Shown here piece after piece: positions 44,022 to 50,000 of a stretch of DNA of 64,000 nucleotides. Origin of the DNA: Callorhinchus milii (taxonomy: Eukaryota); assembly GCF_018977255.1 (NCBI RefSeq), contig NW_024704759.1:6076001-6140000 (forward strand), given 5' to 3'. The stretch's first letter is position 1; each line of letters opens with the position of its first letter. Position numbers and translations under genes: made by a program. The notes beneath the pieces were generated by a model. It worked only from the letters and a program-made list of their open reading frames with translations. It was not told where the DNA came from and did no database searches.

Positions 44022-47000
44022 ATGGTCTGGATGGTGACAGTCGTCCTTTTGTTCCTCTCTTCCCAAACCCTGTGCACAAACCCAGCACTGAAAGTCAGAG
44101 TCACACAAAATGCCTTGGACTATGGTAAGTGTGTTCACGTCTGATAGGAAGGTGGGAGCTTTTATGCAGAGGAGGTATTTTCGCTCCATTTTTTTGCCCT
44201 TGACCTATTGTGAAGACTTTTCAATCCTTTAACCCATGACCAGGGTATGGTCCACAGGCACTGATCACCCTCTGGTACCTTATCCCTGTGTGCGCCTGGA
44301 GAGTATGTATTAGCAGCTATTTGGCCATGTGGGATCTTATAGCCCAACTATAGTCGTCACACAATTCCACACACAGAACAACAACAAATTACATTTACAC
44401 CGCATCGGGAGGATACCCCAAGGCGCTTCACAGTCACGTTTTGCACCCAAGCTGGGGCTTGGGATCAGGATGGGTGAAGGTCAGGGAAGGTAGGGGTAGG
44501 AGGCTAATCAAAAGCACAGTCGAAGAGGAGGGTCTTGAGATGGGCCTTGAAGGAGGCAAGTGAGGGAGCAAGGCAAAGGGACTGTGGGATGGAGTTCCAA
44601 AGGTTGGGCCCAGAAAGGCTGAAGGTCCAATTAAGGATGGTGGAGCAGGCAGGGCCGGGCACATGGAGCAGGCAGGAGTCTCCTGAACGGAGGGAATGGA
44701 CAGGTCAGTATGGAGTTAGCAGGTCACGGAGTTAGGGAGGAGCAAGGCCACGGAGGATTTTGAAAACGAGGACGAGGATTTTGAACTCTATCCTCTGGGG
44801 GATGGGGAGACAGTGGGGCCGAGGGAGGTTGCGGGGGTTCGGGTCACCGAGCTTGGTGTGGGAGAGGACACGAGCTGCAGAGTTCTGAATAATCTGCAGT
44901 TTGTGGAGGGAAGAGTTGGGAAGATCGACAAGCAGGGAGTTGGCAAAAATCGAGCCTAGATGTGTTGAATGCATGGATGATGGTCTCAGCAGCCCGAGAA
45001 GAGAGGCAGTGACGGAGCCAGGCAATGATGCGGAGGTGGGGGAAGCCAGAACAGGTCTCACTCAGAAAGAGTCGTTCCCAGTAGACAATCTCTGGTTAGG
45101 GATGAGGAGTGAGATCCCTTGCTCATTTTCCTTTCCCTAACTGAGAGTCAGTGATCATGAACCCAGCACAACCTGAGACCTTCTGTTTGGCGCAATACAA
45201 TACAATCCTTAGTTAACGAGGATGTCTCAAGGCGCTGTTGCTCAATGGATGCTTTGGTGCCCTGGGAGCGCTGCAATGTTTCAATGTGTGGCTTTCATTC
45301 TAGGGCGTCAAGTTGGAATGCAGGTGTTGCAAGAGGAACTGAAGAAGATTAACATCCCCGATCAAAGGGGCAGAGCACGCAGACTACGCTACCAAATCTC
45401 ACGGTGAGTGAGTGAAACCCACAGGTGACCGTAAGCACGATCGAAGAGGAAGATGTTCAGGCGTGACTTGAAGATGGAGAAGGAGAGATCTCAAAACAAT
45501 ACAATAGAAGGAGAATGCGTAGGTTCCCTAGAAATAAGAAGAAGCTTAAAAGCGTGGAACTGTGGCCCCAAAGGGAATCTCAAACTCGCAGACGAGGCTG
45601 ACCAGCCAGTACAGTGCTGGGGAGTGATGCAATGTTTATATGGTACGATTTGAAAAGAGAAGGCAATTGTCCTCGCCAACAACCTTCCAGATAAATTGGT
45701 CATGGCTGTTTTTGGGGACCTTGTTGTATGCAAACTAAATAAATACAAACAATAAAGCAAATCGATCACCACACAGCCAGTCCCTGTGAAACACTTTGAG
45801 GCATTTGAGTGTTATAGGTAATAATACAAGGATCATTATTAAGTAAATGAAATTCTTTTACAAAAAATTCTGTGACAAAATCACAGGAGCGATTCAGTCG
45901 TTTAATCTCATTGTTTCAGAATAGTAACCACATGTAACCAAGTGTCATTAGAGCATCAAGTTATTTCTTAAATGCAGTACTCTGGCTTCAAACCACCCTT
46001 CCGGGTAACCTGTTCCACCTGCTGATTATCCTCTGGCTGAACACTGATCAGGTCCACTCTAAGACATTTGGTCACTCAACCTACGATTGTTTGTAGGACA
46101 CTGCTGTGGCAATTGGTTACCGCGTTTCGTCCACAAAATACAGTCAATTCACTTGACAGCATATTTTGTGAAGCTGTTTGTGACGTCTCGAAGATGTGAT
46201 AAAGTATTATAGCAAATGCAAAGATTATTATTATGGCATGATTGTTCGTCAGCTGGAGACAAATTATCCACTCAGGTTGATCTGAAATCAGGCGGCCTGG
46301 TTCACAGTGTAAGTTGACGCTGTCTGTTTCCACGCAGGATTCATATTCGGACTTTTAACATAGCCCGATCTACAATGGCGTTCTCCCCCGGAACTGGCAT
46401 GAAACTCTCCCTCGACAATGTTTTCATAGCCGTTCGCGGCAACTGGAGGATGAAATATAGGTTCATGTAAGTAGAGAGCGTTGCGTCAATTTTCTGGTTT
46501 ACTTTTCTGAAGGCAAGTGTTCTCACATGCTGATGTCCACAGTTAGTGTTGGAAAGCTACTGAGGTGCTGGAGCATCAGTTCAGTCCGGTCTAGACTCAA
46601 TGGAGTCCTGTAGTGTAGTGGTTGGCGTGCTCACCTCACAAGCGAGAGGACCCGGCTTCGATTTTCAGGCGGCGCAAAACCTTAGACAAGTTTCTTAACT
46701 CGACTCATCTCTGTTTATCTAGCAGTAAGTAGCAACCCGGTTGATAGTCGATTGGCACATCGCTTTCCATGGGTAACAAACCCTTTTAAAACATAAAATA
46801 ATCCACGACTGCTTCTGGGACAATGCTGTGTGCAATTGGCTGCTGTGTTTCATCCACAAAATACCCTGTCACTCCACTTTACACTATAATATGTGAAGCA
46901 CTTTGAGACATCTCAGCAATGTGATAAGGCGCTATATCAAATGTAAGGATTATTATTATTCTTGTGCTTTTCCACAGAAGAGACAGTGGCTCCTTTCACG

Positions 47001-50000
47001 TATCAGTGAACAGCCTCTCGGTTTCAGAGCTGATCAGGATGAGTAGTGATCAGACCGGACGTCCTGCAGTGAAGAGCGCGGGCTGCCGCGCCAATGTTGG
47101 CAGAGTCAGGATCAAATTGCGTGGAGGCGCGAGGTAACCAAACACATCGCAGAGAGCAACAATTTCACATAACAGAGAATCCCTGTGTTGTATTTGTATT
47201 TTCTATTTGTAGCTTTTATTGGCTGCTGAGATTCACCCACAAAATACAGTCGATTCACTTTACGATTTATTCTGTGAAGCGCTTTGAGACATCTCGGCGA
47301 TGTGATAAGGTGTTATCTTAAAAGCAAGGATTATTATTATTACATATCAAATGTTCATTGCAGATAGGATCACTGATATATTTTATTGATGAACACACCT
47401 GATGGACAGCTGGTACTTAGTTTCACAGCCCAATCCTTACCTGTGGGAGCAGTTGAGTTGGGCAATGTGTCTAAGACTTAGTTTTACTTCATTAATTTCT
47501 AAGCCCTCGTGCAAGATTCTGTCTTGTGATTTTTAATCCAATTTTACCTTTAATTGAACTGTTATTTATTCTTTGTAGCTGGCTCTACAACCTATTCCGT
47601 CGTCCCTTAGAGAGACGCTTTCGTTCTTTGCTCAACCGGCAGGTATGTCTGCTCACATACATTGGCACTTCTTCTCCTGTAACATTTATTAGCAAGTCTG
47701 AGCCCACATTGGTGGAATTGGCACACTCCAAACCCAAGGTACTGCTGCCGGCTTGATTGGTTTCCATCAATTAATTTGTTTTTGCCACAGATTTGTCCAG
47801 AAGTGTCAAAGGTAATCAATAAGCTTGAACCGAAAATGAAAACACTGAAAGGTAGGTTAAAACATTTTCAAATTGTACATTAATAATCCTTCATAGAGTA
47901 TGTTGTAAACCTTGGCGTTTTGTTCGACAAAGTGTCCTTTGTACCCCACATCCGTCAATGACCCTTCCCCTACCTCCACAATTTCTCCCAGCTCCGCCAC
48001 TGCCTCCCCTCTCAGGCCACCGAGACCCTCACATTCATCACATCCATGCTCGACTATGCCACTCCCTTGCTTGTCAGCCTTCCTAACTGTTCCCTCTACA
48101 AGCTGCAAATCATTCAGAACTCTGCAGCTTGTGTCCTCTCCACATTAAGCTCCACGACCTTATCAGCCGGCTCTACTGAAAATCTTCATCCTCGCCTTCA
48201 AAGTCCTCCACGGCCTTGCTGCTCCCTCCCTATGTAACCTGCTAATTCCATATAGACCTGTCCACTCCCTCCACTCATTGGGCTCCAGCCTGCATCATGT
48301 CCCACCATCAGCTGTCGAGCTTTTAGCCTCTCTGCCCTCATGCATTGGAAGTCCATCCCAGAGTCCCTTCCCCTCGCTCCCTCCCTTTCCTTCTTCAAAG
48401 CCAGTCCCAAGACCCTCCTGTTCAACCATGCCTTCGGTCACTCTTTCCTGATCCCAATTCTCCATTTGGGTCCAAATCGCTGATTGTCCAGTGCCTTGAG
48501 ACATATGTAATTTGTTGTTGTTGGATTGATTTTGTGAAACACAGCAGCCAATTGTGCACAGCAGTTTTCCAAACACAGTTGTCGATTCAGTGACCCAATT
48601 CTTTTTCAAGGGATTATTACCCCGGAAAGCAATCCACCAATCGACTAACAAATGCGTTTGTACTTACAGCTATGTAAACAGGCATGTGCAGTAAGGAAAC
48701 TTAACGAAAGTTTTGCCGCACCCAGGAATCGAACCCGGGTCCTCTAACCACTTACCCTACAGGACTCCAGAACTAACTAACTGACGTGACTCTTTTCCCT
48801 TTAAAATCCCAGTCACTGCCAACATTGATAGAATTGCTGAGATCGATTACTCCCTGGTTAATCCTCCTGTAGTCACAAGAAACTTCATGGACCTGGACTT
48901 TAAGGTATTGGGACATCCTCCTGTCATGAAAGATGCTATACAAATGTAATTTAACTAACTGTAGCCTAACTGATGCCTTGTAAAAAGTGAACGTTACCTC
49001 CTCACCTCAACATATAGCCAGGGCACCCACATGTGAAATCTAGAATTCCATTTGCTTATTTGCTGCCGTGTCTAATTGCACTCACAGCTTGAAGGACTTT
49101 TATTGTAGTAATGATAATATTCCTTGCATTTGGTATAGCGCCCAAAGCATCCCAAAGTGCTTCACAATGTTGTGTATTATTTGTGTGTTATTATTGTGTA
49201 TTTTTGTTAATACAGTAAAACCCGCATAAGTCTGATCTGTATAAATCATATAATCACCTAAATCATACATCTGCCCAAGATCTGTTCAAGAGTTTATATT
49301 CTATGCAAGTTTGACACAACTCATACTTTGCATTAGTCATATTAAATGTAAAGTCCCAACTGATACGACTTGTGTGAGGTTTGCTGTATGGTGTATGAGG
49401 GCTGAAGTTTTCAATCGTTCTCCCCAGGGTGAATTCTATAACATTGGACGGCATCAGGAGCCTCCCTTCACCGCAGGCCCACTCAGCTTCCCCGAACAAA
49501 CAAACCACATGATGTACCTGGCTGTGTCCGAATTCTTTTTCAATTCAGCTGCGTTTGTGTATCACAGAGCTGGAGCCTTGCAGATAAACATCACTGACAG
49601 TATGGTACGTACAGACTAATTTAGGTGGAGCTACAACAGTTTGTCTGAGTTTGTAGCCAGGGCATTGGGTTCCTGCTCAATGATCTCATGTTTGATCAGT
49701 CTCAGGGCCTTGGTCTGCCATGTTGTGGGTCACGTTACACTGTGTATTCTCACGATGTGAGTTTTCTGGACAGAGACAGAGAGGACAAATAATTCTTTGA
49801 CCACAGAAGCAGATGGACATTGCTTCACACGCCCCTCCCCAGCCCGTACACAGCACTGCTCTATTAATATAGTCTTATTTGTAAGCGTTCGGGCATCGCA
49901 TTGCACTGAACATGGTACCACATTTCTTTATTATTGTTTTGTTCCCTCCAGATTCCTGAATCATTTCCCATCAGATTAAGCACATCAACTTTTGGTGGTT

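Follow-up and report, generated by a model that had tools for sequence, protein, structure and literature searches.

Exons more divergent than introns between tandem genes, likely of the BPI/LBP family, in Callorhinchus milii

A stretch of 64,000 nucleotides (nt) from Callorhinchus milii (RefSeq assembly GCF_018977255.1, contig NW_024704759.1, positions 6,076,001 to 6,140,000 of the forward strand) was analysed and is called the window below; coordinates count from its first letter. Self-comparison of the window revealed three direct repeats. By splice-site annotation these are three tandem intact genes of 15 exons, A, B and C, all on the + strand, with exons bounded by AG and GT and one open frame each. 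Their sequences suggest that they are likely BPI/LBP-family genes, i.e. genes for a likely endotoxin-binding defence protein. In the tract 45584-47851, 37 of the 410 sites in exons 3-6 differ between A and B (9.0%), as against 38 of the 1,858 intron sites (2.0%; Fisher p=3e-10). In the reading preferred here, to which we assign a probability of roughly 0.58, the introns were homogenised by gene conversion and the exons were protected by selection, which keeps the more cationic copy B distinct from A.

29987-39027, + strand: copy A, 15 exons, intact, 467 amino acids (aa); N-terminal domain with net charge +19 and 16 Arg
44022-52367, + strand: copy B, 15 exons, intact, 467 aa; N-terminal domain with net charge +25, 28 Arg and a computed isoelectric point (pI) of 11.3
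57659-64000, + strand: copy C, exons 1-9 in the window and gene end 3.9 kb beyond it; intact, 472 aa; N-terminal domain with net charge +6 and 10 Arg

Exon and intron divergence between A and B

The following features of copy B, with their partners in A, were compared.

45584-47851, + strand: A-B homogenised tract (partner in A 31942-34225); introns 2-5 with 38/1,858 differences and identical runs of up to 356 nt
46338-46466, + strand: exon 3 (A 32698-32826); 5 nt differences in 4 codons, Q78R, N97F, H101R and V106M, all B-only
46978-47133, + strand: exon 4 (A 33350-33505); two clusters totalling 15 nt differences; residue replaced in 9 codons, silent change in 4 codons; contains Cys147
47579-47642, + strand: exon 5 (A 33951-34014); divergence peak with 13/64 nt; 8 replacement codons
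47791-47851, + strand: exon 6 (A 34165-34225); K188E, E191K, A192V and L200M, B-only single-base changes; contains Cys186
49298-50449, + strand: second homogenised tract, exons 8-11, used as internal control; exons 8/453 versus introns 9/655, p=0.63

A first-pass annotation of the window had reported 25 replacement versus 4 silent codons in exons 3-6 (replacements 4, 9, 8 and 4 per exon, silent codons confined to exon 4), about 540 nt before exon 3 with only 2 differences, and many changes toward Arg in B. The A-B alignment reproduced these counts: the two differences are at sites 45849 and 46206, and 7 of the 25 replacements yield Arg in B while none loses it. The 540-nt stretch flatters the contrast, as the 764 nt before exon 3 contain 18 differences. 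Exon 3 by itself falls short of significance (5/129, p=0.20), and it is exons 4 and 5 that carry the signal. At base level, exons 3-6 have about 29 replacement and 8 silent differences, since codon counting conceals silent steps in multiply changed codons (of the 29 changed codons, 7 have two or three altered bases). With silent steps counted, the 25:4 codons come close to the site ratio of about 3:1.

The excess of differences in the exons was robust to several controls, with the reservation that the stretch was chosen post hoc and that p-values are uncorrected for that choice. Of 2,267 shifts of the exon mask, 15 attained a count as high as that observed; with random exon-sized blocks, p was 0.001. 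The excess persisted at non-CpG sites (30/360 in exons, 30/1,766 in introns), which rules out CpG hypermutability of exons as its source, and also without exon 5 (24/346, p=7e-6). When neighbouring differences were merged into single events, the exon/intron ratio was still 2.4-3.8 (p≤0.023); multi-base mutations were thereby ruled out as the source. In the second homogenised tract no overall exon excess was found, hence exons are not simply more mutable. Exon 5 has a shoulder of 6 intron differences directly upstream (47519-47571).

Two smaller peaks were noted in the C-terminal domain. B exon 9 (49952-50011), the exception within the control tract, differs from A at 5/60 sites (3 replacements) between flanks with 0/120 differences. 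A exon 13 (37465-37528) is a three-way peak, with 12.5-15.6% in all three pairs and A-C flanks at 3%.

A mosaic probably due to gene conversion

Introns 2-5 differ by 1.4-3.1% between A and B (0.7-2.6% in the comparison of all three copies, with C 9-23% away), whereas A-B introns 1, 6, 11, 13 and 14 differ by 10-13% each (pooled 370/2,945, 12.6%). Which pair is closest switches repeatedly along the gene. A and B pair in introns 2-5, A and C in introns 7, 12 and 14 (about 3%), and B and C in exon 2 and again in the 3' flank (0.9%); from exon 8 to intron 10 all three copies are near-identical. There are too many such switches for one unequal crossover, which argues for repeated conversion as the probable cause of the mosaic. 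The low divergence of introns 2-5 is thus likely due to homogenisation by gene conversion, and the A/B duplication itself would be old, with a neutral divergence of about 12-13%. Exon replacement sites (9.4%) do not differ significantly from the unconverted introns (12.6%; p=0.12). The exons are therefore not fast for the age of the duplication; it is the introns that are young. Unconverted patches are also found within introns, at 45716-45750 and 46783-46807.

Homogenisation also reaches intergenic DNA: 902 nt of the B-C spacer (54359-55260) match the spacer that follows C at 98% identity. C exon 2 (58428-58542) is 5 codons longer, and the 60 intron bases upstream of it are identical between B and C.

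Test for a collapsed assembly

Near-identical tandem repeats are prone to assembly error, and the first-pass annotation had itself named collapsed introns as an artefact that might explain the pattern, i.e. introns collapsed or polished into one sequence with the exons left distinct. Over the region 45550-48100, contigs from 4 of 24 sequencing runs (those containing at least half of the words) were compared; the runs represent four samples of one study. In short-read contigs a small bubble is reduced to one of its sides and variants are lost, and other letters were counted among those listed.

For the exon 5 region (47489-47666), two contigs were present in all four runs, one B-like with 0, 0, 0 and 1 other letters and a partner with 19, which is the exact A-B difference count in the assembly. 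Contigs of intron 4 (47271-47518) had 1, 0, 0 and 0 other letters versus 1 expected for A. Three 499-nt contigs of intron 2 had 15, 15 and 13 other letters versus 14 expected, and a fourth, mostly B-like, had 3. One contig (46209-46419) had 2 letters unmatched by the single difference of A, probably a polymorphism. Given the loss of bubbles, a missing A or B form in one run (e.g. in exon 3) was not counted as a conversion polymorphism. A hidden divergence of about 13% would have produced dozens of extra letters, but the intron contigs of the four runs were free of hidden differences. They reject a collapse, and we consider an assembly artefact scarcely credible.

Ratio of replacement to silent substitutions

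The first-pass annotation had interpreted the pattern as a signature of positive selection. In terms of the ratio of replacement to silent substitution rates (dN/dS, omega) this did not hold up, as values were about 1.1-1.4 and never significantly above 1. For exons 3-6, NG86 counted 28.8 replacement and 8.2 silent differences and gave dN/dS of 1.09-1.32 (p=0.29-0.48, three transition weights). Maximum-likelihood (ML) codon models, run in our own implementation on a star tree of three sequences with low power and with conversion left unmodelled, gave omega 1.18 for exons 3-6 (p=0.54 versus 1); for the B branch the value was 1.44 (p=0.46). The comparison of M2a with M1a gave p=0.32 for exons 3-6 and, as the best value, p=0.078 for the whole gene; M2a assigned omega 0 to 29-45% of codons. 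Across partitions omega was 0.82-1.18 and indistinguishable from 1. Neither NG86 nor the ML one-ratio, branch and M1a/M2a models gave a dN/dS significantly above 1. An omega near 1 is high for a folded two-domain protein; it fits either relaxation or a mixture of constrained and favoured sites.

Of the two explanations offered in the first-pass annotation, diversifying selection is consequently left without a significant omega, while selection protecting exons from conversion agrees with the switching trees, the young introns and the raised silent sites described below.

Distribution of differences among the three copies

Sites unique to one copy in exons 3-6 number 8 for A, 26 for B and 41 for C (of 410); in introns 2-5 they number 13, 10 and 180 (of 1,124). 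The 26 exon steps of B comprise 21 replacement and 5 silent steps, with 2.7 and 0.9 expected at the B intron rate (p=2e-8 and p=0.006, respectively). Each of the four codons with silent changes alone has a replacement 1-5 nt away, on average 3.0 nt versus 9.7 nt expected (p=0.02). At codon level, 4 of 4 lie within two codons of a replacement (p=0.08). When neutral patchy conversion was simulated without mismatch dependence, 1-3 of 6,000 runs reached the ratio observed, whichever of five tract lengths was used; since neutral conversion so rarely attains the pattern, selection of some form is needed.

Weighing of the explanations

According to the preferred explanation, repeated gene conversion would have homogenised the neutral DNA between the tandem paralogues A and B (introns 2-5), and selection would have rejected conversions which erase residues, many of them Arg, that make the predicted lipopolysaccharide (LPS)-binding domain of B more cationic. 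Selection would thereby act as a barrier to conversion. Two marks of a peak kept against conversion were found: conversion-homogenised non-coding DNA, and a replacement peak with raised linked silent sites, the latter on few sites. Several observations count against this explanation. No dN/dS test is significant, and the preference for a barrier over a burst of substitutions depends on 4-9 silent sites. Three of the five B-only silent steps lie inside codons that also change the residue, and silent differences are wholly absent from exons 3 and 6. Intron differences cluster too (18/38 have a neighbour within 5 nt), so that an apparent hitchhiking could stem from multi-base mutations. The introns lack a broad shoulder of differences around the exons (2/110 within 30 nt), the region upstream of exon 5 excepted. 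Finally, the predicted cationic tip of the protein differs at only 2/18 residues, and the arginine bias discussed in the next section would be fully accounted for if B were the ancestral state.

A burst predicts silent sites at the intron rate, and a barrier predicts that old silent differences survive beside protected residues. A recent adaptive burst, in which one conversion or duplication equalised introns 2-5 and the exons of A and B before about 21 replacements were fixed in B at about 7 times the neutral rate, would account for the 21 B-only replacement steps where 2.7 are expected, for the A exons being near the intron rate, for the replacements-only exons 3 and 6 and for the Arg bias. 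However, B-only silent steps are also raised about 5-fold, so that omega on the B branch is 1.44 and not about 7, and the many switches of closest partner favour repeated conversion over a single event. We consider the burst by itself rather unlikely, though it deserves serious attention; a mixture of barrier and burst is possible. Less probable still, in our judgement, is neutral patchiness combined with relaxed constraint, in which tracts missed the exons, mismatches blocked conversion, redundant proteins drifted and Arg was lost from A and C by CpG decay. This agrees with an omega indistinguishable from 1 in every partition, with the reverse-direction simulation of the Arg difference, with the selection of the stretch after inspection and with the unconverted patches in introns. 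It is at odds with the location tests (p=0.001-0.007) and with the neutral simulations (≤3/6,000, mismatch-dependent conversion not included). Moreover, all three copies retain 15 exons, splice sites, open frames and both cysteines, M2a places 29-45% of codons at omega 0, and exon 9 (A-B) and exon 13 (A-C) also peak between low flanks. The abrupt stop of divergence at the borders of exons 3 and 4 (flanks 0/60, 0/60, 0/60 and 1/60) could also be produced by exon-only conversion, i.e. by a spliced cDNA or processed copy of a diverged paralogue overwriting the exons of B. A genome search with exon 4 yielded only A, B and C, though, the exon 5 peak runs into intron 4 and long A-B-identical stretches occur within exons, which makes this origin very improbable.

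Arginine content and charge

Of the 19 codons with B-only replacements in exons 3-6, 6 encode Arg in B where 1.6-1.9 would be expected (p=0.003-0.01); over the whole gene the count is 13 of 45 (p≤1e-4), and A and C have no Arg bias. The Arg bias pointed out in the first-pass annotation is therefore significant, provided that B is the derived copy. Several of the codon pairs behind the bias are of CpG-to-CpA types. If B is ancestral, CpG decay on the A+C stem accounts fully for it (p=0.47, 8-fold CpG mutability). Arg may thus have been gained in B or lost by CpG-driven decay in A and C. Selection keeping A and B apart is independent of the direction, but a gain in B depends on it. GC-biased conversion was rejected as the source of the bias: B-only changes in exons 2-7 comprise 15 weak-to-strong and 11 strong-to-weak changes, and a 2-fold bias still gave p=0.01.

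Attempts to polarise the changes with an outgroup from the same genome failed. The BPI-superfamily loci at C18 5.02 and 7.62 Mb (see below) align piecewise at 22-45%, and the C14 stretch had no match under E=1; all were too distant.

The net charge of the N-terminal domain forms a ladder from C (+6) over A (+19) to B (+25), with 10, 16 and 28 Arg; C-terminal domains are near neutral in every copy. A large part of the difference between A and B consists of Lys-to-Arg exchanges (N-terminal Lys 19 in A versus 13 in B, Arg 16 versus 28). Differences between A and B concentrate in residues 54-68 (10/15) and 141-195 (17/55). The cationic tip of BPI/LBP is given as residues 86-102 (PMC4620459), and its position was transferred by cysteine-anchored numbering. 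On this approximate mapping B98-115 is the predicted tip, with 4 basic residues in A, 5 in B and 3 in C, and B exon 3 extends into the region. Such a tip distinguishes the BPI/LBP subfamily from PLTP, CETP and BPIF.

Copy B is predicted to be the stronger binder of LPS and of Gram-negative outer membranes and the more bactericidal, BPI-like copy. C, the least cationic, is predicted to be more LBP-like.

Protein divergence is strongest in exon 2, which lies outside the tract described above.

45304-45403, + strand: B exon 2; residues 54-68 (45357-45403) differ from A at 10/15, with 6 Arg there in B, 3 in A and 0 in C

Family assignment

LBP_BPI_CETP_C (PF02886, cut-off 23 bits) matched in all three copies, with 58-60 bits in the exon 8 regions and 37-40 bits in the exon 10 regions. 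PF01273 (N-terminal LBP_BPI_CETP) had no match among 10 scored candidates, with controls equally blank in this unspliced genome search with short exons. Two cysteines lie 39 residues apart in every copy (147/186 in A and in B, 152/191 in C); the N-terminal disulfide of human BPI is C135-C175, a spacing of 40 (PMC4620459). The pair thus corresponds to the conserved N-terminal disulfide of the BPI/LBP/PLTP/CETP superfamily, and the bond is predicted. At 467, 467 and 472 aa, with a hydrophobic N-terminus and a signal peptide called by eye, the proteins have the size of secreted two-domain members, about 470-480 aa; pompano BPI/LBP proteins are 474-478 aa long (PMC10138239). Protein identity is 85% between A and B (399/467) and 80-85% among the copies overall. 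The pI values of the mature proteins are 9.2, 9.8 and 10.3, i.e. all three are basic.

The genome searched comprises 991.5 Mb in 1,762 contigs. The exon 4 search gave three candidates, all of them A, B or C (3/3). Further BPI-superfamily loci were found by PF02886 at C18 5.02 Mb, C18 7.62 Mb (the cluster's own contig), C14:13.29 Mb and, with a match below the cut-off, C11:12.32 Mb.

Comparison with known systems

In primate red/green opsins, introns homogenised by conversion surround an exon divergence peak (Fawcett and Innan 2011, PMC3924837). As here, the genes are tandem paralogues, and the exon peak was read as the result of selection restricting conversion. The opsin case has a single peak, surrounding two residues that were tested, and support from several species, in contrast to the BPI/LBP cluster with several peaks over at least four exons and a three-copy mosaic, known from the sequence of one species. 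Homogenised introns around exon peaks are also described for RH genes and colobine RNase1 (PMC3924837). In RNase1/RNase1B of colobines, non-coding divergence is likewise below coding divergence, and the same dispute exists between an adaptive burst and shielded old changes; that case concerns a digestive enzyme, involves one coding exon region only and draws on data from several species (PMC3924837). The S and R copies of ATP1A1 in Leptodactylus also have scattered replacements kept despite conversion, with silent variants at a median of 4 bp (1-5 nt here). The evidence there comes from five species and protein engineering, and it concerns 12 residues of a toxin-resistant pump, compared with 25 in four exons here (bioRxiv 10.1101/2020.08.04.234435).

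Regarding charge, primate RNase3/ECP and RNase2/EDN are similar in that one host-defence duplicate became more cationic through Arg and Lys (pI 10.47 versus 9.20), and the charge of ECP was gained after duplication and tied to bacterial wall binding (PMC3845642). Unlike there, where the direction is known and the available text mentions no conversion barrier, the A-B contrast is largely Lys-to-Arg. Within the same family, mammalian BPI (pI about 10) and LBP (near neutral) differ in charge, and greater cationicity is reported to underlie the stronger LPS and bacterial binding and killing of BPI (PMC4620459). The pompano BPI/LBP pair has pI values of 4.77 and 10.7 (PMC10138239). These mammalian and teleost pairs are old and diverged, whereas A, B and C are 80-85% identical, all basic and likely still exchanging DNA. 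The charge split between A, B and C would be lineage-specific.

Among the literature matches listed, which include few subscription journals, there was no report of this cluster or of the exon-peak pattern in BPI/LBP genes. The mechanism of selection versus conversion is already established; if true, an innate-immune BPI/LBP case would extend the short list of opsins, RH, ATP1A1 and RNase1. The case also cautions that divergence of exons over introns in tandem genes is not the same as dN/dS > 1.

Killing by BPI versus the handing on of LPS by LBP is usually ascribed to net charge, and the mammalian pair is too diverged to pinpoint residues. Between A and B, conversion has likely removed most neutral differences, and the remaining ones are candidate functional residues for swap assays. 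In a more far-reaching version, which we regard as conceivable though doubtful, a single BPI/LBP gene would be diversifying in a cartilaginous-fish lineage into copies of graded charge (C +6, A +19, B +25), separately from the split between BPI and LBP in mammals. Selection would maintain about 20 residues of a bactericidal B rich in arginine while conversion goes on, and the residues so retained would be a list of sites which turn an LPS carrier into a bacterial killer.

Surroundings of the cluster

A PRELI-family exon lies upstream of the cluster, and an exon of a serine carboxypeptidase S10, which we take to be cathepsin A-like, is arranged head to head with copy A. No Pfam match was obtained in 106 other flanking-locus frames and one further frame of the window.

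6644-6937, - strand: PRELI-family exon
23339-23638, - strand: serine carboxypeptidase S10 exon
24538-24867, 42463-42788 and 58969-59298: three copies of a 330-nt repeat resembling a short interspersed nuclear element (SINE)
42884-43335: 227-nt tandem duplication (98% identical) upstream of B

The three SINE-like copies are 96-98% identical to each other and about 75-80% to other copies of the family; they could be a young subfamily or the product of local copying. Beyond the window, 3 kb downstream of C, an orphan fragment of 320 nt, 90% like A and C, contains exon 14 together with the intron preceding it. It is likely the remnant of a fourth copy or of a partial duplication. The tandem duplication upstream of B lies in the likely promoter region.

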